A stretch of 64,000 nt of DNA from a virus, in the IMG/VR virus record IMGVR_UViG_3300041405_000299, positions 1-64,000 of that record. The stretch is one strand, 5' to 3'. Position 1 is the stretch's first letter. Each line of letters starts with the position of its first letter. The notes beneath the pieces are model-generated. The model did not search any database. It was not told where the DNA came from and was given only the letters and a program-made list of their open reading frames with translations. Position numbers and translations under genes: made by a program. This document shows positions 7,030-42,253 of the stretch, one piece after another.

Positions 7030-7824
7030 ATGCAGAAAGAATCCAGTTTTTTATTCACGGCCCTCGGCGGCCACGTCCTGCAAAACATCGCCGGCGCCAA
7101 GCTCGTTAAATCCCGCGGTTTCCTGGAAGACACCGCTAAAGCTCTGATGTCAGGAGCCCTGGCCCGGAACGCCCGAAAGGGAACCCTGAAAGAAGCGGCT
7201 AAAACGGCAGTGACCAGTGTAGGTGTCCCTGAAGCTATTATGGCACAGCACCGTGCGTTTGAAGCCGGGAGAACGCTGTACGCTCGAGCTCGAGCCATGG
7301 GTATCGACCCGAACAAGCTCACGAAGAAAGAAGCGGCGAAGATGCGAATGGTGGCCGAAGGTCGTCTACCGGATAAGCACTCAACGCCGTTAACCGAACG
7401 GGCGAAGTCTCTTTTAGGTTCCAATACGTTGCCAAAGGGCACGATCAAAGCGGACGCCGTTAAGCAAGTGACCAGCCGGCCAATGGGTAGCCTCTCTCCA
7501 CACTCTCGTGGAGCGATCATTACCGGAAACGCCATTGCGTCCATTGCTGAACCGGGTATCGGTGCCTTAAACGCCGCGAAGTTTGGTACGGAACTGAAGA
7601 GCTTCCAGAATACTCGTCTAGGCAAGTACGTTGAGAAAAACATGGTGCAGAAGCCACTGACCGATGCCTTCCAGTCTGGGGCGGCCGGTAAAGCGATGAA
7701 CAACCTGAAGTCCTTTGGCTACAAGTACGGCGTGAACGGTGCCGTTGGTCAGGCGATCGAAGGGGCTCATAAGCTCGGCTCCAACTCAATGAAGAAGTTG
7801 CCAGGTGGTATAAGTAAGAAGTAA
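7030..7824 (+). CDS. Basic Lys/Ala/Gly-rich protein (264 aa)
   Basis: SD GAGGAG. Low-complexity K/A/G composition. First gene after the tRNA-like leader. Confidence 0.8.
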   Translation: MQKESSFLFTALGGHVLQNIAGAKLVKSRGFLEDTAKALMSGALARNARKGTLKEAAKTAVTSVGVPEAIMAQHRAFEAGRTLYARARAMGIDPNKLTKKEAAKMRMVAEGRLPDKHSTPLTERAKSLLGSNTLPKGTIKADAVKQVTSRPMGSLSPHSRGAIITGNAIASIAEPGIGALNAAKFGTELKSFQNTRLGKYVEKNMVQKPLTDAFQSGAAGKAMNNLKSFGYKYGVNGAVGQAIEGAHKLGSNSMKKLPGGISKK

Positions 7825-7826
7825 CG
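7807..7826 (+). promoter_or_regulatory. Conserved phage promoter-like motif (GGTATAAGTAAGAAGTAACG)
   Basis: Motif family member embedded in the last codons of the 7030..7824 gene. Confidence 0.5.
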
Positions 7827-7837
7827 GAGGATTTACA

Positions 7838-7903
7838 ATGACTGGTATCGCAATCATAGCAATATGCATCGCAATTACTTACTGGTTCTACCGGGGTCGT
7901 TAA
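7838..7903 (+). CDS. 21-aa single-helix mini-protein candidate
   Basis: SD GGAGG 7 nt upstream. Translation is [22 protein letters not shown] terminator follows. Confidence 0.4.
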
Positions 7904-7916
7904 GGCCCCGTTTTTT
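7892..7916 (+). terminator. Intrinsic terminator
   Basis: CGGGGTC-gttaa-GGCCCCG followed by T6. Confidence 0.65.
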
Positions 7917-7926
7917 AGGAGACGTT

Positions 7927-8079
7927 ATGTATAAGCACAACCGAGGAGAGATCAAAGAGAGTGCTGTTAAAGCCATTCTCCATGATCCTCTTTTTAGCCA
8001 GAAAGTGGAACGCCCCAAGAAAGGGAAGGGTTCCTACCGCCGTTCTAAGACTTGGTCAAGCGGGCGCGAGCCTGCTTAA
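7927..8079 (+). CDS. arfA: Alternative ribosome-rescue factor A (ArfA) homolog, 50 aa
   Basis: [46 protein letters not shown] aligns with E. coli ArfA [38 protein letters not shown] (recalled from memory). Confidence 0.8.
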
Positions 8080-8179
8080 CTAACCCTCTCACGTTTCCTT
8101 CACGGATTGCCTTCACGCCGGGTCGCATTGAATTTGCGATGACGCTGTAGTTGTTGGTGAATCGAGCTGGATTGATCAT
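8045..8179 (-). CDS. Antisense 44-aa basic ORF overlapping the arfA 3' end
   Basis: Strong SD GGAGGT 4 nt before the ATG (8179). Translation is [44 protein letters not shown]. This is the C-terminal part of track ORF 8045..8512(-). Confidence 0.4.
8058..8077 (+). promoter_or_regulatory. 3'-terminal hairpin in the arfA-like ORF
   Basis: AAGCGGGC-gcga-GCCTGCTT, 8 bp including one G:U. It ends on the first base of the TAA stop. The position is analogous to the RNase III hairpin of E. coli arfA. Confidence 0.55.
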
Positions 8180-8242
8180 AGTTACCTCCAAATTGATTTT
8201 ATCGTAATGCTCAGGTATAGTCGAGAAAACGGAGGACTCCCT

Positions 8243-8734
8243 ATGCTTGACTACTACATCACTGGCGCCTACTTCAAAGGGGCCGAAGCGATTAAACCTG
8301 CCTTTACCGACTTCACTGATTTCCCCGCATGCTTTTCCGTGATGCAAGATTCTCTTGGCGTGCGTCCCGGTGCCCACATGGCCATGACGTTCATGCTCCT
8401 TGACGAAGAACCTATCGAAGACCGAGACATCACGATCCGTTACGGATGGGGTGGCCACGACGGCCAGATCCTCGCGTCCGTTCTTGATGAAGATGGCGCG
8501 GTGCTTAACCAAGGTTTTGTCATCATTCTGGACGTCAAAACGGGTAAGCTCGAGAGCCGTCGACTAGATGGTCGAACCGACGACGATGCTTTAGATGACG
8601 CTATTAAAATCATCCTAGAATACGGCAACTACATGCTTGCCGGTATCAACTGGGGTGCGTTTCTCCTGCACGAGTATGCGGAGGGGCGGCTCGAACAGTA
8701 CTTTGAAGACGCAATCAACCAGGAGATCCACTGA
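8243..8734 (+). CDS. Acidic hypothetical protein (163 aa)
   Basis: ORF track 8207..8734. The ATG at 8243 follows the SD GGAGG. TGATG overlap with the next gene. Confidence 0.75.
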   Translation: MLDYYITGAYFKGAEAIKPAFTDFTDFPACFSVMQDSLGVRPGAHMAMTFMLLDEEPIEDRDITIRYGWGGHDGQILASVLDEDGAVLNQGFVIILDVKTGKLESRRLDGRTDDDALDDAIKIILEYGNYMLAGINWGAFLLHEYAEGRLEQYFEDAINQEIH

Positions 8735-10509
8735 TGAGTGAAGGTAAAAAGACGCTGCACCAAGCCGCGTCCACCCTTAAGAAAAACCCAAGCCGTATTG
8801 ACCGCTTGGTAAAAGAAGCAGCGATGCGTATCGTTCCCGCTGCCCGTTACGCTACTGGCAATGCCAAGAAGATGGCTGAGCAGGCAATCGCTAAGCTGAA
8901 AGAACCGAAAGGTTTCGGCGGGGCCGACCTGTCAACGAAGAGCTCGAAGTTCTTCAAAGAAGCTAGCGACAAATCAAGAGAAGTCATGGGATCCGGTGCC
9001 ATCGGTGCTGCAGTGACTGGCGGTGCGGCTGCATTGGCAGAGCGTGCTCGTACTAAACGCGTTGTAAGCGGTCACGTGGTTCACCAGCATTACCGTGCCC
9101 TGCGTGCGGATAAAGGCTCAATGGAAGGACGTATGGCTGACACTGCCAAACGTAATCGTCGTTTAGGTGGCCTGGCCGGCCGTAACGCTTCACGTGCAGG
9201 TAAGATCGGTGCGATTGTAGGTGGAGCACTGGGTGCTGCTGCAGCCCTGAAGAAAGAAGCCAGTGACAAGACCCGTGATGCAGCCTTGACAGTAGTCGGG
9301 GCTGGAGCAGGAGCGACCGCAGGCCACTTGGCAGCTCGTATTCGCGGAGAAAGTAAGGTCTTAGACCGCGTAAGCAATGCAACCATGCGTGACTTAAAGT
9401 CAGACCGCTCTATCAGTCATTCGTTGGATCGCCAGTCTACTTACGAACGTCGCGGTGGCAAACTCGTCAGCAAAGCGAAAGGTAAAGCCCGTCTGGTCGG
9501 TGCGGCCATTGGTGCAGCATCTGCTTTAGCTGCGGGTAAGCTCGAAAAGAAAGCTGCTGCTAAGCCGGTGATCCACAAGGGTCAACACTTACTGCCAAAA
9601 GGCGCCCCGATCCCTGCCGGTGCTAAAGACGTGTCACCTAAAGCGGTACTGAAAGGTCGCGTGAACAAAGCCGGTAAGGTTGCGGTAGGTTTGGCGGCAG
9701 GTGCGGCTCTGGCCGGTGCCGTTAAGAACCACCTGGAGAAGAAAGCGGCAAAGAATGACGGCAAGGGTCACCTTTCTGTAAGTGGTGCAACCCTTGCCGG
9801 TGCAGGTTACGCGGCGTCTAAGCGTTTAGGTAAAGACAGTCAGAAAGCCCAGGAAGGTCTGAAGGCCCAGATCAAGCACATCCAGTCTAAAGGTGGACGT
9901 ATCGCCCCGATCGATGTGCGTATGGCGGTTGACTCGTTGAAGAAACCTCTCGCCCGTCGTGCCGGTAAAGCTGCCCTGAAGGGAGGTGCTCTGGGTGCTG
10001 CCGCTGCCGCCGGCCTGAACAAGCTGATGGATAACCACAAGGCCACGGCTCGTAAGAATGCCCGTCTGCAGAAACAAGCCGGCGAAACAGTAGGTTCCCA
10101 AGCCGATCGTGAAATCAACAAAGTCGTTGCCTCTAAGGGTAAAAAGGGGAATACCTCTTTGCAACCCGGAAAGGACAAAGGTCCGTTAAAGAAGCAAGCA
10201 GCAGAAATGATCGAGCGTAACGGCGTGAAGCACCGTAAGGGGACGCCGGGTTCTGCCGCGGCAACCATGGCGGGAATCGCGACGGGTTTGACTGCAGGGA
10301 ATAACGTTGCAGCCTACCGTGCAGCCAAGAAACACGCATTGGGTGAAGTGATTTCCCGCCGTTCCATCCTTAAAGGTGTGCCACAGCAGGCAGTACTCAA
10401 TGCTGCGTACGGGTATGCTTACGGAAGAATCCGTAGCCATTTTCGCAAGAAGCGTGGGGAAGTTGACACGTCACCAGCAGCATTTGCGAAGTTGAAGGCA
10501 GGTAAATAA
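8734..10509 (+). CDS. 591-aa basic protein with at least 8 Gly/Ala-zipper segments separated by Lys/Arg-rich linkers
   Basis: Segments such as GSGAIGAAVTGGAAALA, GKIGAIVGGALGAAAAL and VAVGLAAGAALAGAV. Recurring KKEASDK(S/T)R and LEKKAA linkers. Confidence 0.85.
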   Translation: MSEGKKTLHQAASTLKKNPSRIDRLVKEAAMRIVPAARYATGNAKKMAEQAIAKLKEPKGFGGADLSTKSSKFFKEASDKSREVMGSGAIGAAVTGGAAALAERARTKRVVSGHVVHQHYRALRADKGSMEGRMADTAKRNRRLGGLAGRNASRAGKIGAIVGGALGAAAALKKEASDKTRDAALTVVGAGAGATAGHLAARIRGESKVLDRVSNATMRDLKSDRSISHSLDRQSTYERRGGKLVSKAKGKARLVGAAIGAASALAAGKLEKKAAAKPVIHKGQHLLPKGAPIPAGAKDVSPKAVLKGRVNKAGKVAVGLAAGAALAGAVKNHLEKKAAKNDGKGHLSVSGATLAGAGYAASKRLGKDSQKAQEGLKAQIKHIQSKGGRIAPIDVRMAVDSLKKPLARRAGKAALKGGALGAAAAAGLNKLMDNHKATARKNARLQKQAGETVGSQADREINKVVASKGKKGNTSLQPGKDKGPLKKQAAEMIERNGVKHRKGTPGSAAATMAGIATGLTAGNNVAAYRAAKKHALGEVISRRSILKGVPQQAVLNAAYGYAYGRIRSHFRKKRGEVDTSPAAFAKLKAGK

Positions 10510-11186
10510 TGACCGAGCGCAAAGTCAAGGATAAAGACAAGGCGACTCTGGCAGGGGCGGCTTCGGCCGTCCTCGCTAGCCGGGCACCGAAGAATCTTCT
10601 TGGATATGAGAAGGTCCATCACGGCACGAGTACATCTGCTGCTGAAAGCATTAAGAAAACTGGTCTGAAGAAGTCTTACTCGGGCAAGGGTGTGGCGGCA
10701 AACGATGTGGCAATGGGCCGTGCAACACACGATCAGGTAAAAGGTAAAGTCTATACCTCAACGATGGGTGCTGTAGCCGATGCTCACCGCCCGGGGATCG
10801 GAGAGATGAAAATGGGCCAACGTTTGACGGCTCGCGTTCCGTACCGCAGCAAGAAGCGTTTAGGTGAAGACCATGTGTTTAAGAATATGGTGGATGGCAA
10901 AGATTCCCATACGAATTACGGTAAGGTCCAACGCACCCTGGCGAAGCCTCAGTTGAAGTCGCTTCGGATCTACAAGCACTCGATTCCTTCTCGCTTCATC
11001 GAAGGTAGTCATGACTATGCCGGCCGCAAACAGTTTGCCTCAAAGGGAAACCTTCGTCGCTACCTGTCACAAGCCGGTGGTAAAGCCCGTTTTGCCAAAG
11101 GTGTAGCTGAAGCTGCCGGGGCCGGCGCCGCTGGACTTTACGCTGCAGCCAAAGCTATCAAAGCCCATAAGGATGCCAAGAAATGA
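10509..11186 (+). CDS. Paralog A of an HGTS-motif protein (tentative ADP-ribosyltransferase/Tpt1-like fold)
   Basis: TAATG coupling. LLGYEKVHHGTSTSAAESIKKTGL and GKVYTST resemble the ART/KptA pattern LYHGT...I...GL...VHLS. Gly/Ala-rich C-terminus. Confidence 0.45.
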   Translation: MTERKVKDKDKATLAGAASAVLASRAPKNLLGYEKVHHGTSTSAAESIKKTGLKKSYSGKGVAANDVAMGRATHDQVKGKVYTSTMGAVADAHRPGIGEMKMGQRLTARVPYRSKKRLGEDHVFKNMVDGKDSHTNYGKVQRTLAKPQLKSLRIYKHSIPSRFIEGSHDYAGRKQFASKGNLRRYLSQAGGKARFAKGVAEAAGAGAAGLYAAAKAIKAHKDAKK

Positions 11187-11575
11187 GTCTGTACAAAATT
11201 GCCAAGAGTTTGAACCAGATCAAAGAAGAACGTTCTCACCGTAATCGCCGTCTGGAAGCCGCTCCGTACATTGCTACGGGTGCAGCTGCCGTTGGATCGG
11301 TCGCTCATGATCTTTCCAAGAAGACGGGGAACCCTCGGATGACCATGAAGGGCGGCAAGATGGTCCGTGGAGAACAGCGTAGTTACCATCAGTTCCGGGA
11401 GAAGAGTCCGACCGGGAAGATGAACTACCTGAAAGCTTCCGGTGCTAAAGCCATTCCGCGTGCCCTGGCCGTCGGTGCCGGTACGGCGATCGCCACGAAA
11501 GCCTACAAGTACCTGGCCGAAGAGAAGGCCCGCCGTGAGGAAAAAGCCCGTCGCCGTGAGCTTAAAGGCCATTGA
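11183..11575 (+). CDS. Basic Lys/Ala/Gly-rich protein (130 aa)
   Basis: ATGA coupling. Same compositional family as 7030 and 8734. Confidence 0.8.
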   Translation: MSLYKIAKSLNQIKEERSHRNRRLEAAPYIATGAAAVGSVAHDLSKKTGNPRMTMKGGKMVRGEQRSYHQFREKSPTGKMNYLKASGAKAIPRALAVGAGTAIATKAYKYLAEEKARREEKARRRELKGH

Positions 11576-11626
11576 CGGAGCAGGGCCGCCGGTGTAAGCT
11601 GGCAGCTCTACTCACAGGAGAACACC

Positions 11627-11854
11627 ATGAAAGACCAACACGAAAAGATCAAGGGCTACCGCGATCTGTCCCAAAAAGAAATCGACAAAATGAACGCGAT
11701 CAAAGACGCCGGTAACGCACTGGGTGCTCTGATTGAAGACCTGCAGGGCCTCGAAGGTCTGGACCAACGCTTCATCTCCATCGGTAAAACCGACGTGCAG
11801 AAAGGCCTGGCCATGATCATCCGTGGTATCGCACAGCCTACAACGTTCTGCTAA
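11627..11854 (+). CDS. Hypothetical small protein (75 aa)
   Basis: SD AGGAGA. Translation contains KGYRDLSQKEIDKMNAIKDAGN...GKTDVQKGLAMIIRGIAQPTTF. Confidence 0.75.
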   Translation: MKDQHEKIKGYRDLSQKEIDKMNAIKDAGNALGALIEDLQGLEGLDQRFISIGKTDVQKGLAMIIRGIAQPTTFC

Positions 11855-12015
11855 TGAACGCGTGGGGTTGGGCAACGGTCGTCGTCGCGTTTGCCGTTAT
11901 TGTGTTGATGATTTACGATGACCTTCGGGAAGCCAAGCAGGAGTGTGAAGAGGTGAAATCCTCATACCCATACTGGCTTTCTGCCGCGTTCTGGATCACT
12001 CTGTTTTCTCTCTAA
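11854..12015 (+). CDS. Small membrane protein (53 aa; below the ORF-track cutoff)
   Basis: TAATG coupling. Translation is MNAWGWATVVVAFAVIVLMIY... A terminator follows. Confidence 0.6.
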   Translation: MNAWGWATVVVAFAVIVLMIYDDLREAKQECEEVKSSYPYWLSAAFWITLFSL

Positions 12016-12035
12016 GCTCCTTCGGGAGCTTTTTT
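12015..12035 (+). terminator. Intrinsic terminator (UUCG tetraloop)
   Basis: AGCTCC-ttcg-GGAGCT followed by T5. Confidence 0.75.
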
Positions 12036-12046
12036 CATTTCAGGGG

Positions 12047-12075
12047 TTGACAGCCCGATTGGCCTCGGTTAGGAT
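12047..12075 (+). promoter_or_regulatory. sigma70-like promoter for tRNA island C
   Basis: TTGACA-N17-TAGGAT. Confidence 0.55.
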
Positions 12076-12084
12076 TATCCCATC

Positions 12085-12261
12085 GCTCCCTGGTACGTGG
12101 GAGCCTAAAGTGCCAGCGGATCCCTAACGAGTGCTGCAAACACTCCGAAGAAGATCACTGATAACGTGCAAGGCAACTGCGGAAGGTTTTTCTCTTTCCT
12201 TCCTTCCCGCCTCCTTTGCTGGTAGTCACGCCAGTGCCGAAAGAGTGATAGATGTACCGGA
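12085..12261 (+). ncRNA. ORF-free structured leader upstream of tRNA-Asn
   Basis: Hairpin GCTCCC..GGGAGC. GCGGAAGG pairs with a downstream polypyrimidine tract TCCTTCCTTCCCGC. No SD-led ORF. Confidence 0.35.
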
Positions 12262-12336
12262 TGGCCTATCGTATAGCGGTTATTACGGCGGACTGTTAAT
12301 CCGTTTACCCTGGTTCGATTCCAGGTGGGCCAGCCA
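12262..12336 (+). tRNA. tRNA-Asn (GUU)
   Basis: Anticodon arm GCGGA-CTGTTAA-TCCGT, T arm CCTGG-TTCGATT-CCAGG, encoded CCA. Confidence 0.8.
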
Positions 12337-12367
12337 AGCAGTATCTCGTATCCCATATAGTTACTTT

Positions 12368-12408
12368 GGGTGGGTTCCGAATCCTGAATGAGAACCCACC
12401 TCTTTTTT
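12368..12408 (+). terminator. Intrinsic terminator
   Basis: 10-bp stem GGGTGGGTTC/GAACCCACCT followed by T6. Confidence 0.7.
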
Positions 12409-12419
12409 CGGAGAGTAAA

Positions 12420-12605
12420 ATGCTGAGTCCAGAACAAGCAAGGCAGTACGAGAAGTTGTGTGTTGAGAGCGTATCTGCTCGCGTACCTTTAGCGTCCGAA
12501 GCCCCAGTGGGGAGCGAGTCGACTTTGGGGTGCGGGACCAAATGCGTTTTTGAACCCATTGAGGCGCTGGCTTTTGCGTCCGAAGGCTCCCGAGCAGCGA
12601 GTTGA
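12420..12605 (+). CDS. Candidate 61-aa ORF with an internal repeat (could instead be a structured RNA)
   Basis: SD GGAGAG 4 nt upstream. The nucleotide repeat GCGTCCGAAG..AGCGAG occurs twice. Overlaps a 13-bp inverted repeat. Confidence 0.3.
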   Translation: MLSPEQARQYEKLCVESVSARVPLASEAPVGSESTLGCGTKCVFEPIEALAFASEGSRAAS

Positions 12606-12634
12606 CAACTGAGGCGCCGCCTCAATGGGTTTAT

Positions 12635-12721
12635 CCGAGAGTGGTGAAACTGGTATATACATGAGACTTAAAATCTTCCGCTCGTAAGGGCATGTGGGTT
12701 CGACTCCCACCTCTCGGACCA
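12635..12721 (+). tRNA. tRNA-Leu (UAA), type II
   Basis: Anticodon loop CTTAAAA, long variable arm, T arm GTGGG-TTCGACT-CCCAC, encoded CCA. Confidence 0.8.
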
Positions 12722-12729
12722 GTATTTAC

Positions 12730-12805
12730 GCCGTTATAGCTCAGCAGGCAGAGCGCCACACTTGTAATGTGGATGTCCCGGGTTCGATTCCTGGTGGCGG
12801 CACCA
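12730..12805 (+). tRNA. tRNA-Thr (UGU)
   Basis: Anticodon arm CCACA-CTTGTAA-TGTGG, encoded CCA. Confidence 0.85.
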
Positions 12806-12807
12806 AC

Positions 12808-12883
12808 GGATAGACAGGCTTGTAACGGCACGGCGAGGGTACCCTAAGCGTGTCAGCGTGAGGTTCAATTCCTCACCTATCCA
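12808..12883 (+). ncRNA. tRNA-sized element with acceptor and T arm but no anticodon stem-loop
   Basis: Acceptor GGATAG(A)/(C)CTATCC and T arm TGAGG-TTCAATT-CCTCA. The central 44 nt give no 5-bp/7-nt anticodon arm. No CCA. Confidence 0.45.
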
Positions 12884-12890
12884 CTAATTT

Positions 12891-12969
12891 GGAAACTGTA
12901 CGGTACAGCTATCAGCTCACCGTTGAAAGAATACGGACAAGTCGGCTCGACTCAAGACGTACGGTTTCC
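12891..12969 (+). ncRNA. Structured RNA closed by an 11-bp terminal helix
   Basis: GGAAACTGTAC (12891-12901) pairs with GTACGGTTTCC (12959-12969). Internal hairpins AGCT-atc-AGCT and AGTCG-gct-CGACT. Confidence 0.4.
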
Positions 12970-12974
12970 TCCTT

Positions 12975-13049
12975 GCATCCTAAGTGTTGTCGGTGGCACA
13001 GCGTCCTTCCAAGTCGCGAGGACCGGTTCGAGCCCGGTAGGATGCTCCA
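12975..13049 (+). tRNA. tRNA-Gly (UCC)
   Basis: Anticodon loop CTTCCAA (one U:U in the stem), T arm ACCGG-TTCGAGC-CCGGT, encoded CCA. Confidence 0.7.
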
Positions 13050-13063
13050 ATTTGAGAGGCTGT

Positions 13064-13234
13064 ATGAATTACGTTAAGTTGATCGCGATGTTAATTGGCA
13101 TCGCCGCCCTGGTAGCAGGCTTTTACTTCTTCCTCGGTGTGGTACTGGCAGTTGCAGTCTTTGCGTTAGTCATTTGGTACCTCTCTGCAGCAGCAGAATC
13201 CCTTTGGATTAAGCTCTGCAGTAAGTTTCGGTAA
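13064..13234 (+). CDS. Small membrane protein (56 aa)
   Basis: Internal ATG of track ORF 12923..13234 after the SD GAGAGG. Its last 5 nt overlap the next tRNA. Confidence 0.55.
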   Translation: MNYVKLIAMLIGIAALVAGFYFFLGVVLAVAVFALVIWYLSAAAESLWIKLCSKFR

Positions 13235-13304
13235 AGTAGCTCAGCGGCAGAGCAGCTCCTTCATACGGAGACGGTCGGTGGTTCAATCCCACCCTTTACC
13301 ACCA
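13230..13304 (+). tRNA. tRNA-Met-type (CAU)
   Basis: Anticodon loop TTCATAC, T arm GGTGG-TTCAATC-CCACC, encoded CCA. Met versus Ile2 is not resolvable by eye. Confidence 0.75.
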
Positions 13305-13404
13305 GATAGTGCAGTGCCCGTAACGGAGGTGATCGCTATCTTGATGGTCCTAATGGACAAGTCCGAAGGTGCCGCCGCGAGGCAAGATCTGAGGGCGAAC
13401 CCGT

Positions 13405-13479
13405 AGCAGGGTGGAGAAGTGGCATCTTGCCAGGCTCATAACCTGGAGATCGAGGGTTCGAGTCCCTCTCCCGCTTCCA
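13405..13479 (+). tRNA. tRNA-Met/Ile2-type (CAU)
   Basis: Anticodon arm CCAGG-CTCATAA-CCTGG, T arm GAGGG-TTCGAGT-CCCTC, one acceptor mismatch, encoded CCA. Confidence 0.7.
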
Positions 13480-13510
13480 CATGAAAGCATATTCCAGAGT
13501 GTTCTTTCAT

Positions 13511-13587
13511 GTGGCCATATCATAATTGGTTAATGATCCTGGTTGTGAACCAGGCCTATGTCGGTTCAACCCCGACTGGTCACCCCA
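13511..13587 (+). tRNA. tRNA-His (GUG)
   Basis: Anticodon arm CCTGG-TTGTGAA-CCAGG, C73. The base at -1 is T, not G. Confidence 0.8.
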
Positions 13588-13601
13588 AACAGGAGAGTGT
13601 T

Positions 13602-13760
13602 ATGAAGCCTTACGGTTTGAAGCTCGGCGGAAACCCAGGATGTAACTGCGGTCGATGTAAACGTCGGGGTTGGCGTGAAGGCGCCACTCAGAACACCATC
13701 TGTAAAGCTTCTGCACGTCAGGAAGCAAAACGTATCATCAACGGCGGGTTGGCAGAGTGA
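13602..13760 (+). CDS. Small basic Cys-rich protein (52 aa)
   Basis: SD AGGAGA. Translation contains CNCGRCKRRGW. The last 18 nt overlap tRNA-Cys. Confidence 0.5.
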   Translation: MKPYGLKLGGNPGCNCGRCKRRGWREGATQNTICKASARQEAKRIINGGLAE

Positions 13761-24550: not shown

Positions 24551-24554
24551 GCCA

Positions 24555-24574
24555 AAGCCCTTCGGGGCTTTTTT
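24555..24574 (+). terminator. Intrinsic terminator (UUCG tetraloop)
   Basis: AAGCCC-ttcg-GGGCTT followed by T6. Identical to the one at 27915. Confidence 0.75.
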
Positions 24575-24588
24575 ACTTTGGAGACACT

Positions 24589-24942
24589 ATGAATACCAAC
24601 CATGTGTACGCCAGCAACGTGGCCAATAAGACGGTCGACGGTGTTTACGTGCTGACTCACTCACCGGTAGCCTTACCGGACAAAGACGGCCCGATTTACT
24701 TTAGAACGGATATCGCTATGGGCTACGAGATTGAAGGCCTGCAGGGGAAATACCTGCTCGGGTTCATCACGTCTCGTAAGTCCAACCTGAACCTCACTAC
24801 GCTAAACCTGGTCGGCCCCGACGGTATCGTGCACTCCCACGATGTCGTGGACACCAACGAAGCAATCCGTACGTTCTCCAAACTGAAGGCGGCAAACTCG
24901 GTCACGTACACCGATATCGGCACCGTCTACGTGGATGACTGA
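24589..24942 (+). CDS. Hypothetical protein (117 aa)
   Basis: Internal ATG of track ORF 24499..24942 after the SD GGAGA. Confidence 0.7.
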   Translation: MNTNHVYASNVANKTVDGVYVLTHSPVALPDKDGPIYFRTDIAMGYEIEGLQGKYLLGFITSRKSNLNLTTLNLVGPDGIVHSHDVVDTNEAIRTFSKLKAANSVTYTDIGTVYVDD

Positions 24943-25217
24943 TGGATTATATCTTAGCCAGTTACCTCGCGTGGCAAGGCCGTCCGGTTACTCGTCCGGG
25001 TTGGCCGGAAGGCGCCTATGCGGTACTGAAAGGTGCATCTCCGCACATTTTCATCCCCGGGTCGCCTGCAACTGTTTGGCATTCCACCAAGGAGGATCGC
25101 TTTGCAACAGACTTTAGAGAAATCATCGCTGACGTACCAGCAAGCTCTGACGAAGATTCTGGCGGGCCAACCGATGACTCGGAAGCATCTGACAACGACT
25201 CGGATCTTTCTGAGTAA
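24942..25217 (+). CDS. DUF2829 (Tad2-like) domain protein 1 with an acidic tail
   Basis: TGATG coupling. Motifs WQGRPVTRPGW and WHSTKEDRFATDF match the DUF2829 pattern. Confidence 0.6.
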   Translation: MDYILASYLAWQGRPVTRPGWPEGAYAVLKGASPHIFIPGSPATVWHSTKEDRFATDFREIIADVPASSDEDSGGPTDDSEASDNDSDLSE

Positions 25218-25353
25218 GGTTGGCCACATTGAGATCCAGCATCACGTGAAGTTCCCGGCCTCCACTCTGTGGTGGCCAACTGCCGAGGATATCCTGGCTG
25301 ATGATTACGTTCCGGCGTACTTCAACTCCGATACCACTCAACCCTTAAACTAA
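25174..25353 (+). CDS. DUF2829-like domain protein 2 (start uncertain)
   Basis: Frame of track ORF 25033..25353. WWPTAEDILADDYV is the C-terminal DUF2829 motif. Domain-like sequence (LTYQQALTKILAGQP) extends upstream of the first ATG. Confidence 0.45.
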   Translation: MTRKHLTTTRIFLSKVGHIEIQHHVKFPASTLWWPTAEDILADDYVPAYFNSDTTQPLN

Positions 25354-25462
25354 AGTTACGGGCGAGAAGCTGACTGCATCAGGGTGCGATAGTCAGTGGA
25401 AGGACGCTGGCATCCCCTGCAGGTGCACAGCGTGATACCCCGTTCCCTCTTTGGAAACCACC

Positions 25463-25888
25463 ATGAAAGTCACCTTGACCGCTGAAGTTATTCACATTAC
25501 CGAATTCCCCACTCGTCGATACGGAGAGTTACCCGATGACGTCCGCCAGGCGTTGAACAAGATGCCGGCAACGGAGAAGAAGTCCCGCTCGCTGCTCTTC
25601 ATTGATGGATACGACCCGAGGATCATCGATGACACTACCGTGCGTCGTTACTACCCGATGGCGCTGCCAATGACTTTCTCAGAAGGTGTTGCTCTGCTCG
25701 CCAAATCTGATAAGCTGGTCATGACACGTAACGGCACCACCGTCTCGTTCACCGGCCAGGAGTATCTGTCTGGCGGCAAATCCTGGGTGCCTTCACCCAA
25801 AGACATCATCTCGCAGGAGAAAAATTGGTATGTCCATCCGAAAAATCAACCGAATCAAGAGAAAGCAGAGCTCCCTGACATCGGGTAA
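25463..25888 (+). CDS. Protein with a C-terminal DUF2829-like domain (domain 3)
   Basis: MTFSEGVALLAKSDKLVMTRNG...WVPSPKDIISQEKNWYV. Confidence 0.55.
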   Translation: MKVTLTAEVIHITEFPTRRYGELPDDVRQALNKMPATEKKSRSLLFIDGYDPRIIDDTTVRRYYPMALPMTFSEGVALLAKSDKLVMTRNGTTVSFTGQEYLSGGKSWVPSPKDIISQEKNWYVHPKNQPNQEKAELPDIG

Positions 25889-26006
25889 GCACTGGTGTGA
25901 CGGTTGCGATGCCAACCTGGTGCACGCCAACGAAAAATGTCCATGCGGTTGGCACCCCGGTAACCAAGTGAAGAAGCGTGACTTCTACTTCGAGGAGGTC
26001 GCATGA
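25830..26006 (+). CDS. Zinc-ribbon mini-protein (58 aa; below the cutoff)
   Basis: SD AGGAGA 9 nt upstream. CDGC...CPC motif. ATGA coupling to the next ORF. Overlaps the previous gene by 59 nt. Confidence 0.5.
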   Translation: MSIRKINRIKRKQSSLTSGKHWCDGCDANLVHANEKCPCGWHPGNQVKKRDFYFEEVA

Positions 26007-29942: not shown

Positions 29943-29998
29943 GTAACACGATCATTTACACACTGCATTTGCAGGACATTAACACAAAGGAGTACGCA

Positions 29999-30922
29999 AT
30001 GAGTCAAGTAACCACCATTAATTTCTTCGGCGAGCCAATTCTGGTAACTGCAACTCAGCTGGAAATTAACGGGCGTCTTGAACCTGTTCTCGGAGTGGTT
30101 GCTCGTCGGTTGTGCGAACAGCTGGGCCTCGATTGGTCAACCCAGCATGCCAAGCTGATGGATGATGAAGATAACCGTTACCGTGCGTTTAAGTCAACCG
30201 TGACCGCCGGTGATGATAAAGAACGTGAAGTTACAATCATCCCGCTGTCGACTGTCAACGCATTCCTCTTCAGCATCAACCGCAAGAACCTGTCCGATAA
30301 CGACATGATCACTACGCGTCTCGCAAACGGTGAAGTGGTTCAGGAAAGCAAAAAGGCTAAACTGATCCGCTATCAAGATGAATGTACAACGGTGCTGTAT
30401 GACTACTGGCACCATGGAGTAGCTATGAACTTCCGTGCTGATCCGAAAGATCTGGACTCACAGAAAACCTACGACATCCTGCAGACTTCTCGCAAGCGTT
30501 ACGACAACATGTTCAACGGTCTGGTAGCATCGATCGTTGACGGTCAGGGTAAACGCGGTGCTGATTTCGAACAGGGCGTCAAAGAGTTCGGCGTTGAGCT
30601 GGACAAGCGTGTTGAAGAAGTAATCCGTACCTGCCTGGGTGCGGAAGAGCTGGACCTGAACAAAGGCCTGATCCGTAAATCCGGTGAGCCTTTCCTGCGT
30701 CCGGTTTCCGGTCATGAAGCCCTGAGCGTTTCCATTCTGGAAAACTGCGTGTGCGACCTGATTGGTCTGTATCGCCGTAAGGAGCTGGGTCAGGATGCCG
30801 GCTATGAAGTGATCCTCCAGGCTCTGGAAGATTACTATCACGACTACCTGGAAAACGTGGCGGGCAATGTTGTCACCATGCGTTCTACCTTCAACCGCGG
30901 CAAAGGCCTCTTCGCCAGCTAA
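29999..30922 (+). CDS. Phage antirepressor-like protein (P22 Ant N-terminal-like domain)
   Basis: SD AAGGAG. TINFFGEPILV...LCEQLGLDWSTQHAKL...IPLSTVNAFLFSIN resembles the P22_AR_N domain. Confidence 0.6.
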   Translation: MSQVTTINFFGEPILVTATQLEINGRLEPVLGVVARRLCEQLGLDWSTQHAKLMDDEDNRYRAFKSTVTAGDDKEREVTIIPLSTVNAFLFSINRKNLSDNDMITTRLANGEVVQESKKAKLIRYQDECTTVLYDYWHHGVAMNFRADPKDLDSQKTYDILQTSRKRYDNMFNGLVASIVDGQGKRGADFEQGVKEFGVELDKRVEEVIRTCLGAEELDLNKGLIRKSGEPFLRPVSGHEALSVSILENCVCDLIGLYRRKELGQDAGYEVILQALEDYYHDYLENVAGNVVTMRSTFNRGKGLFAS

Positions 30923-32487: not shown

Positions 32488-32658
32488 ATGACTCAATGTG
32501 TCTACTGTAATCGGGCTGCAGTCGAAGAAGTAAGAGAGCCCTGCGAAGTTAATGGTGTTCGATTCGATCATCTCTATACTCATTGCTCGTGCTGTGATAA
32601 CGACTTCGTTACACCTGAGCAGGACAAAATCAACGAAGCAAATAGGAGCAAACCATGA
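32488..32658 (+). CDS. Zinc-finger mini-protein (56 aa; YgiT/MqsA-N-like CxxC...CxxC)
   Basis: Translation contains MTQCVYCN...HCSCCDNDF. ATGA coupling to the HD hydrolase gene. Confidence 0.5.
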   Translation: MTQCVYCNRAAVEEVREPCEVNGVRFDHLYTHCSCCDNDFVTPEQDKINEANRSKP

Positions 32659-33494
32659 GTACAGCAATCACGGATCCTCAGGAATTTAACAAAGGGGAAT
32701 CCTTCGCTCGTGAGAACCTGCTCGATCGTGTATTCAAATTGGACCAGGACGTTGCCCTGAGTCTGATCAACCGCATCGAGGGTAAAACTTATGCTACTCC
32801 TTCTTTTGAAGCTGGCGTTCATAGTTATTGCCATAAACTACTTGGCCTCTTAGGGATTGAGACTATGACACAGCGTGAAGATACCGTGCGGGATTTCGGC
32901 ATTGCCGGGATGCACGTGCGTTTACAAGCTGCCTATGACTTAGCGAAGAAAGCCCACACGGGGCAGAAGCGTAAGGTCACCGGCGGTGATTACTTTAATG
33001 ATCACGTCCTCCAGGTGGCCCAAGCGGTCTCCCAGTACGTAACAATCCACAACCCATCCGAAGAGGTGATCACCACCCGTCAAACCAACATGATTTGTGC
33101 CGCTTTGCTGCACGACGTGGTGGAAGACACGGACGTGACTCTGGCGGCTATCGAGCATGAGTTTGGCGAGCAGGTTGCCCAGTGGGTCGACGGCTTAACG
33201 CACGCTACCGTCGGTGTTAACCGGGCGGACCGTGAGTACAAGACTCAGCAGAAGCTGATCTCAGCGTCATGGGAAGTGCGGTTGATTAAGTGTTTTGATA
33301 TCATGCACAACGCCCGTGATCTGGCCAATCTGGATCCGGCGTTCGGTGTACGTTGGTATCAGGAGAAGGTAGACTTGATCGAAGCGGAAGGTGGTAAGTT
33401 CTTGGAAGGGATCCCGCCGATTGTGACGGAATCCCTGAGTACTACGTTGAAGCTAGGTCTGCGTTTATCTCAGGCTTTAAGCGCTAAGAAATAG
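32655..33494 (+). CDS. RelA/SpoT-type HD-domain hydrolase (small alarmone hydrolase-like), TAG stop
   Basis: KKAHTGQKRKVTGGDYFNDHVLQVA...AALLHDVVEDTDVT...FGEQVAQWVDGLTH matches the (p)ppGpp hydrolase HD domain. Confidence 0.7.
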   Translation: MSTAITDPQEFNKGESFARENLLDRVFKLDQDVALSLINRIEGKTYATPSFEAGVHSYCHKLLGLLGIETMTQREDTVRDFGIAGMHVRLQAAYDLAKKAHTGQKRKVTGGDYFNDHVLQVAQAVSQYVTIHNPSEEVITTRQTNMICAALLHDVVEDTDVTLAAIEHEFGEQVAQWVDGLTHATVGVNRADREYKTQQKLISASWEVRLIKCFDIMHNARDLANLDPAFGVRWYQEKVDLIEAEGGKFLEGIPPIVTESLSTTLKLGLRLSQALSAKK

Positions 33495-41305: not shown

Positions 41306-41634
41306 TGCGTCTTGTAGAACTCTCGGAATTGGACGACAAACTGTGCGTCCGCCATGCGGCAAAGATCTATTTCCGCATCAAGAACCCCACCAGCAAACAG
41401 AAATGGACTAACGGCCGGACTCGGGAAGTCCTGAACTTACCGAAAACCGTGTTGCTTGATGACTACAACGTTGAAGTTTATGTTGATCCTGAGACGATTC
41501 TGGTAGTCCGATCTGCCGGTGATGCGGTATACTCTCACTTTCGCGATGCACAGTCAGGAAAATGCAGTCCGACTGTGACGAATCCGGCCTTAGCGGTCGT
41601 GTCTTATAAACGAGGAATTCCTTATGCCATTTAA
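41305..41634 (+). CDS. Hypothetical protein
   Basis: TAATG coupling. Confidence 0.75.
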   Translation: MRLVELSELDDKLCVRHAAKIYFRIKNPTSKQKWTNGRTREVLNLPKTVLLDDYNVEVYVDPETILVVRSAGDAVYSHFRDAQSGKCSPTVTNPALAVVSYKRGIPYAI

Positions 41635-42253
41635 CAAAATCCACGACCTGATGGATGATGCTCCTTCCGTTCCATACATGGACACCCGTCACGTTACCCG
41701 TGCGGGCTTAATGCTTAACACCGCTGCCAAGTCGAAGGCCGTTGTCCTGTCTCAGGCAGACATCGCCCGTCTGATGAACTTCACGGCTAATGAAGGTGTG
41801 CTCGACATGGATAAGCTGCGTGAACAAGGTCCTATCGTTCTGCAGTTCGATGGCCAGCGTGATGACAAAGGTCGCTTCGTGATCGCCTTGCTGACCGTCC
41901 CAATGGATGAAGGCAATCAGGTGACGTGCTTCCCGTACTCTAACAATAACGAAAAAGACAAAATGTGGCCGTACGATAAACACTTTGTCTTCGGTAACGT
42001 TAGTGACTTGAAGAAGATCACTATTCAAACCCGTGATACGCACCCGCTGGCGAGCGCCGAAGACCTGGACGAACTGGGTAAAACCCACTTGTCCGCCCTG
42101 AGCGCTATCGTGCTGAAATTCCTGTTTGCTCAGCAGCAAGGCCTGTTTACCGTAGTGCCGGACAACCGTGACTACTCCAAACTGAATAAGAAACGTGAGA
42201 AGAGCAAGAAGTCTCCGTTCGTCCCCGATAACCTCCTGGTATGGAGCAAGTAA
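41624..42253 (+). CDS. Hypothetical protein (209 aa)
   Basis: SD GAGGA. ORF track. Confidence 0.8.
   Translation: MPFNKIHDLMDDAPSVPYMDTRHVTRAGLMLNTAAKSKAVVLSQADIARLMNFTANEGVLDMDKLREQGPIVLQFDGQRDDKGRFVIALLTVPMDEGNQVTCFPYSNNNEKDKMWPYDKHFVFGNVSDLKKITIQTRDTHPLASAEDLDELGKTHLSALSAIVLKFLFAQQQGLFTVVPDNRDYSKLNKKREKSKKSPFVPDNLLVWSK

Follow-up and report, generated by a model that had tools for sequence, protein, structure and literature searches.

Tad2 (Thoeris anti-defence 2) proteins, members of the DUF2829 family (PF11195) with which phages sequester bacterial immune signals, are the closest described relatives of the locus reported here. Tad2 of SPO1 binds 1''-3' gcADPR between the protomers of its tetramer via W25, N26, W73 and D79 among other residues, and other members of the family bind His-ADPR, N7-cADPR, cUMP/cCMP or cyclic dinucleotides, some of them in a second pocket. 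We analyzed a stretch of 64,000 nucleotides (nt) of viral DNA, positions 1 to 64,000 of the IMG/VR record IMGVR_UViG_3300041405_000299 (hereafter the window), in which three adjacent genes at 24942-25888 on the plus strand carry a two-part Tad2-like signature. With moderate confidence, we read this locus as a small accessory, probably counter-defence, module encoding three very diverged Tad2-like proteins, in which genes 1 and 2 would be ancient paralogues that overlap out of frame and are translated separately.

The three frames, and the peptides quoted from them in a first-pass annotation made from the DNA letters alone, were recovered at the expected positions, the second frame ending at 25353. 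The ATG of gene 1 overlaps the stop codon of the gene upstream (TGATG), and the features of the locus are as follows (aa, amino acids; ORF, open reading frame).

24942-25217, plus strand: gene 1 (ORF1), 91 aa, with a diverged Tad2-like domain at aa 1-59 (nt 24942-25118) and a 32-aa acidic tail (nt 25119-25214)
25089-25095, plus strand: Shine-Dalgarno sequence AAGGAGG of gene 2, as read from the sequence
25102-25353, plus strand: gene 2, 83 aa from a predicted TTG start, Tad2-like, in frame +1 relative to gene 1
25102-25217, plus strand: dual-coding overlap of 116 nt, coding for gene 1's acidic tail in one frame and gene 2's N-terminal helix in the other
25370-25442, plus strand: two-hairpin intergenic element between gene 2 and gene 3
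25463-25888, plus strand: gene 3 (ORF3), 141 aa, with an N-terminal domain at aa 1-66 and a probable Tad2-like C-terminal domain at aa 69-126 (nt 25667-25840)

The phage carrying the locus is large, encodes 25 tRNA genes and is an Arash-like enterobacterial myovirus of the Salmonella type. Salmonella phage Arash, an orphan myovirus with 80% of its genes hypothetical, is the sole relative of the window in 50,697 deposited phage genomes (about 76-79% nucleotide identity), and the paper describing it makes no mention of the genes of the locus. The relatives compared below are Arash (L001, OQ632216) and loci labelled L002 onward, L002-L005 among them being metagenomic. Word-indexed homologue searches gave one to three close relatives per protein and no more, and family-specific hidden Markov models found no further copy in 826 six-frame segments of the window. 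NCBIfam held no match for the locus proteins, and single-sequence PDB searches with each of them returned nothing relevant.

The gene 2 family is, by profile comparison, a secure Tad2-like member. PF11195 is the sole Pfam family matched by ORF1 (16.3 bits) and by ORF2 (20.5 bits), in both cases over positions 2-71 of a profile of length 73. Among the gene 2 orthologues, those of Arash (29.1 bits) and L015 (26.5 bits) pass the gathering cut-off of 25 bits and those of L002 and L014 reach 23.9 and 22.4 bits; PF11195 is the top Pfam match, and mostly the sole one, in every orthologue. The gene 2 family profile aligns in full length with a canonical Tad2 profile made from 41 non-redundant IMG/VR Tad2 proteins and two solved ones, SPO1 Tad2 and ModTad2 (hhalign 97.0%, E 8.6e-11), and again in full length with the two solved proteins by themselves (hhalign 89.8%, E 1.8e-6). 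A PDB search with the same family profile returned Tad2/AcrIIA7 chains exclusively, with a best E of 0.009.

Gene 1 is a clear paralogue of gene 2 and can be taken as Tad2-like by transitivity, because its family matches the gene 2 family (hhalign 96.9%, E 2e-10). Directly compared, the gene 1 family also aligns in full length with the canonical Tad2 profile (hhalign 53.8%, E 1.3e-4), and ORF1 of the window matches the gene 2 orthologues of L015 and L013 directly by tblastn. PF11195 is the sole Pfam match in all seven gene 1 orthologues, spanning the whole model at 15.6-18 bits, below the cut-off. Purifying selection is evident in both genes: the ratio of nonsynonymous to synonymous differences (pN/pS) is 0.10-0.15 for the gene 1 domain among the closer lineages and 0.25-0.49 for the part of gene 2 outside the overlap.

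The start of gene 2 has to be considered together with its overlap with gene 1. The first-pass annotation had observed that the second domain begins inside the acidic tail of gene 1 in another frame, and that the first in-frame ATG (25174) lies downstream of its N-terminal motif; both observations are correct, the frame being +1. It had left the choice between a non-ATG start, a frameshift and a truncation, and the comparison of relatives favours the first of these. The sequence AAGGAGG (25089-25095), formed by the K-E-D codons of the conserved C-terminal motif of gene 1, is followed after 6 nt by a TTG (25102-25104) in the gene 2 frame, giving 83 aa with the whole N-terminal motif. L002-L005 have an identical AAGGAGG and a GTG at the position of the window's TTG; gene 2 of Arash, L013, L014, L015, L016 and L018 starts with ATG; and L006 has an in-frame TAA seven codons after the ancestral GTG, its gene 2 starting at a new ATG that is preceded by a separate AAGG and lies nine codons downstream from the window's TTG position. 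Start codons have turned over among the relatives, and every lineage keeps an independent start with a Shine-Dalgarno-like sequence. Since such a start is always present and no slippery motif is common to the six lineages, ordinary initiation of gene 2 at the non-ATG codon TTG 25102 is favoured over both frameshift and truncation.

A programmed +1 ribosomal frameshift would fuse gene 1 to gene 2 into one protein with two Tad2-like domains, gene 2 having no start of its own, and we consider this very improbable. It would fit the +1 frame of gene 2, the TTTG at 25101-25104 of the window and an odd tRNA-like gene at 6925-7000 in which ARAGORN reads the four-base anticodon CAAA; this tRNA acting on TTTG was considered as a mechanism and rejected, since the TTTG has not been kept (L002-L005 have CGTG and Arash has TTTA at this site). 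The independent starts described above all precede the N-terminal helix, the in-frame TAA of L006 lies just before its new ATG and leaves one or two codons for a shift, and a shift at TTTG would remove the last strand (ATDF) of domain 1. Somewhat less improbable, yet still unlikely in our view, is that gene 2 is an N-terminally truncated remnant of 59 aa translated from ATG 25174, or that the overlap and acidic tail are a functionless, neutral accident of a lost stop codon. The protein database entry for gene 2 of the window is indeed the 59-aa ATG form (P0001), the tail shows little conservation of amino-acid sequence (pN/pS of at least 1 in its frame), and the chance of the frame staying open is not small in any one lineage. 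Against truncation, relatives retain the helix encoded upstream of 25174, which corresponds in alignments to helix alpha-1 of Tad2, and ATG 25174 has no counterpart start in the relatives. Against a neutral tail, six lineages keep 32-41 residues beyond the A(T/K)D(F/Y) motif, and the gene 1 stops, compared codon by codon in four lineages, fall at different, non-homologous codons of the gene 2 frame and within a few codons of each other, that is, at nearly the same place.

Under separate translation of the two genes, the overlap can be examined as coding sequence in both frames, and six lineages retain it at a length of 92-128 nt. When the synonymous codons of gene 2 were resampled with the codon usage of the window, the gene 1 frame stayed open over the observed length by chance with P of 0.06-0.66 per lineage; the product of about 2e-4 overstates the significance, the lineages being related and only partly independent. 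The net negative charge of the tail exceeded that of the synonymous resampling in 6/6 lineages (P 0.0009-0.076). Between the window and L002, pN/pS in the overlap is 0.57 in the gene 2 frame, which is under purifying selection there, and 1.78 in the gene 1 frame. The overlap accordingly appears to be genuine dual coding, and from these ratios together with the excess acidity it seems that the N-terminal helix of gene 2 dictates the sequence, the tail of gene 1 being selected for its composition and not its sequence. The annotation of Arash illustrates how such a pair is recorded: in OQ632216 the gene 1 homologue (93 aa, 41454-41735 of that record) is unannotated, and the annotated start of gp60c (41321-41662) runs upstream into the gene 1 frame, an extension broken by stop codons in other lineages. 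Counted from the conserved start, an ATG that opens MSVTTLDF..., gene 2 of Arash encodes 79 aa.

The C-terminal half of gene 3 is, by sequence comparison and structure prediction, probably a Tad2-like domain in compact, shortened form. It aligns with the gene 2 family in the expected register (hhalign 53%, E 1.4e-4) and weakly with the canonical Tad2 profile (hhalign 27.8%, E 6.4e-4). None of 100 column shuffles, the full extent of this control, reached the score against canonical Tad2, either locally (22.7 against a maximum of 17.4, z 5.2) or globally (17.8 against a maximum of 11.9, z 6.0). An AlphaFold2 (AF2) model from seven sequences has a predicted local distance difference test score (pLDDT) of 83, and its residues 72-126 form a helix, four strands, a helix and a strand, the order of elements expected for a Tad2-like fold, in which an antiparallel beta sheet follows the N-terminal helix and a last strand follows a short helix near the C-terminus. 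In a Foldseek search of BFVD with this model, three of the top eight matches are proteins annotated as 'Thoeris anti-defense 2-like domain', all E-values being above 0.001; the best match has a template modelling (TM) score of 0.61, normalised to the 75-aa target, and a root-mean-square deviation of 2.5 A over 75 columns. An earlier AF2 model from four close sequences was poor (pLDDT 60), and the Foldseek search made with it is meaningless. An exhaustive search with gene 3 returned family members only, apart from P0011, a 3352-aa Ig-repeat protein that was discarded as a false positive (Pfam Big_5/Big_12 repeats). No relatives could be recognised for residues 1-66, which make up a domain of their own and are the only part of gene 3 matched by one truncated database protein. 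A combined profile of the three families matches SPO1 Tad2 (8SME) in the PDB with E 1.8e-6, and its top seven matches are all Tad2/AcrIIA7, a result that counts as consistency only, as the combined profile presupposes the homology being tested.

The assignment of all three domains to DUF2829 in the first-pass annotation is thus upheld by profile evidence for domains 1 and 2, and domain 3 is probable only, being sub-threshold in every sequence library. Its description of the three as an array was overstated: the locus consists of an obligate-looking pair, genes 1 and 2, and one separate two-domain gene.

It should be noted that gene 3 is itself overlapped. The gene for a 58-aa zinc-ribbon-like protein (C-x2-C ... 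C-x-C; 25830-26006) begins within the stretch coding for the C-terminal tail of gene 3, in a 59-nt out-of-frame overlap that is also found in L007-L012 and is extended in Arash; the small protein is conserved at about 75% identity among relatives.

Regarding function, alignments place equivalents of W73 and D79 in all three proteins of the window. At the position of W25, gene 1 has W, gene 2 has L in the window and W in relatives, and gene 3 has F in the clade of the window and W in more distant relatives. The N26 equivalent is P, T and T in genes 1, 2 and 3, respectively, and is kept in none. A nucleotide-type pocket is plausible by analogy with characterised Tad2 proteins, with a ligand that is not predictable from sequence. 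In the mechanism we propose, gene 2 would initiate at TTG 25102 from the AAGGAGG inside gene 1, so that the DNA of its first 38 codons would also code, in the gene 1 frame, for the acidic tail; gene 3 would be a fusion of the unknown N-terminal domain with a shortened Tad2-like domain. As in Tad2, the proteins may assemble into oligomers that would trap a nucleotide-derived signal of host immunity in pockets lined by the C-terminal motif's conserved Trp and Asp. We infer a signal-sponge role, and with it an anti-defence effect, from this likeness; the acidic tail may contribute in a way of its own.

Several observations weigh against this reading. The scores of ORF1 and ORF2 both lie under the Pfam gathering cut-off, and ORF3 has no match to PF11195 at all; no Pfam match was found for gene 3 in the window protein or in any of eight relatives. 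Neither the gene 1 nor the gene 3 family profile alone finds Tad2 in the PDB, and a Foldseek search of the PDB with the gene 3 model found nothing, Tad2 included. In PHROGs, the one match is a weak one of gene 2 to phrog_643, and the nearest family is labelled 'transcriptional regulator'. The known gcADPR pocket does not appear to be intact in the proteins of the window, because N26 is lost in all three and W25 is replaced by Leu in gene 2 and by Phe in gene 3. Finally, DUF2829 proteins have also been reported as anti-CRISPRs (AcrIIA7), and AcrIIA7 chains are among the PDB matches here. A Tad2-like fold with another job, such as binding a host protein or nucleic acid or an AcrIIA7-like anti-CRISPR activity, is thus a possible alternative, if a distinctly less probable one, and to it belongs the case that the C-terminal half of gene 3 is non-homologous and shares only the short W-x-P-S-x-x-D-I motif. 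The loss of N26 and the partial retention of W25, as well as the acidic tail and the extra N-terminal domain, both absent from characterised Tad2 proteins, would suit such a function. Set against it are the retained equivalents of W73 and D79 and the fact that the functionally characterised members in the literature consulted are all sponges, with varied ligands and two different pockets; non-homology of gene 3 is countered by its score beating 100/100 shuffles, both locally and globally, and by the Tad2-like-annotated proteins among its Foldseek matches. A more elaborate version of the sponge seems doubtful to us: genes 1 and 2, always acquired or lost as a pair and translated from overlapping frames of a single mRNA, would form an obligate hetero-oligomer, as mixed tetramers with asymmetric pockets to which gene 1 gives the Trp lost from gene 2 of the window, with a ligand specificity unseen in homomeric Tad2 and a selected acidic tail that adds a second activity or controls assembly.

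The counter-defence part of the preferred reading also draws on genomic context. The locus is anchored upstream by a conserved cell wall hydrolase gene and a gene of 117/147 aa, and downstream by the small zinc-ribbon-like gene, and what lies between these anchors differs among relatives. The window, the Arash group, L002-L006 and L013-L016 carry both gene 1 and gene 2 (the sequence of L018 ends before the gene 2 stop), and L007-L012 and L099, in which a 58-aa membrane protein precedes gene 3, lack both. The slot in Arash (L001 2056-2759) holds genes 1 and 2, the membrane protein and a phosphoesterase, the last of these lying between the pair and gene 3, and that of L002-L005 holds two small membrane proteins (61 and 59 aa), gene 3 being only 23% identical there. 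This pattern of presence and absence amid small uncharacterised genes fits an accessory or counter-defence region, without proving one. The two-hairpin element occurs once in the window and is conserved in L002-L005, L007-L012 and L099 (L002 about 3430-3500, L007 about 2750-2820, L099 11037-11076 on the minus strand), directly upstream of gene 3 or, in relatives without genes 1 and 2, of the 58-aa gene. Four of its 22 predicted pairs covary, among only three distinct lineages, and it has no Rfam match; it may act as a structured RNA or as a processing site, or it may regulate or delimit the locus. A scan for sigma-70 promoters and terminators gave nothing above shuffle expectation.

The gene upstream of gene 1 encodes either 147 aa (ATG 24499, overlapping the hydrolase gene) or about 117 aa (ATG 24589, as called in relatives), and the shorter form is favoured because the hydrolase stop is directly followed by a hairpin and T run (24554-24571) that resemble a terminator. 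Further downstream in the window, 29969-30922 encodes a P22 antirepressor N-terminal domain (PF10547, E 7e-22) and 32655-33494 an HD_4 domain (PF13328, E 1.2e-13); other neighbours are mostly without any annotation. The 25 tRNA genes are clustered on the plus strand at 4140-19303. One has a CTA anticodon and is amber-suppressor-like (ARAGORN label 'Pyl'; Rfam tRNA 56 bits), and two were called with four-base anticodons, AGTG (Rfam 34 bits) and CAAA (Rfam 50 bits); the tRNAs singled out in this way lie at 16575-16649, 4502-4575 and 6925-7000. Recoding of TAG would leave genes 1-3 unchanged, because all three end in TAA.

Compared with described Tad2 proteins (SPO1 gp34.65, PDB 8SME; ModTad2, 9EIB; HgmTad2/AcrIIA7, 8KBI; PF11195), the proteins of the window are alike in being small phage proteins of about 80-100 aa, in the N-terminal helix motif F-x-x-A-x-x-x-L-x-x-G-x-x-V-x-R and the C-terminal motif W-x-P-S/T-x-x-D-I/M-L-A-x-D-W/Y/F, in the full-length profile match of gene 2, and in their site within a variable region of small genes without known function. 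They differ in that the window copies are far more diverged and fall below the Pfam cut-off, with a shorter stretch in place of the long beta2-beta3 loop region and with substitutions in the GWNG motif at the positions given above, gene 1 adds an acidic tail and gene 3 an N-terminal domain, and two paralogues are locked in a 116-nt out-of-frame overlap. Neighbouring Tad2 copies are thus known from elsewhere and are uncommon: a second copy within 600 nt was found in 1/80 canonical Tad2 loci, a simple tandem duplication in L020 (IMGVR_UViG_2974451483_000001, 335-861). Its two adjacent Tad2-like genes also lie on the same strand; however, they abut without a long overlap and each gives a strong match to the canonical profile (E 7.7e-34 and 7.6e-15), whereas paralogues of the window type are about 25-30% identical and overlap by 92-128 nt. 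We found no paper describing paired or overlapping Tad2 genes.

Tad2-family sponges have evolved several ligand specificities and two different pockets, and the locus extends the family to copies missed by standard annotation. Should the pair form a mixed oligomer, this would be a new phage route to diversify signal sponges; even without it, the locus offers a clean and comparatively well-supported example of dual coding, and a practical reminder of how gene callers shorten or miss such overlapping genes. As in other phage gene pairs overprinted over long out-of-frame overlaps, portions of two proteins are specified by the same DNA, the frame that is younger or under less constraint yields a segment that is disordered and biased in composition, and the downstream ribosome-binding site lies inside the upstream gene. 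Unlike in those pairs, the overlapping genes are here paralogues of each other, and overprinting has extended an existing domain by a tail and has not created a new protein. What is known is thus the Tad2 family; what is new is a conserved overlapping pair of paralogues with an overprinted acidic tail, together with a third member, probably Tad2-like in its C-terminal half, of two domains.

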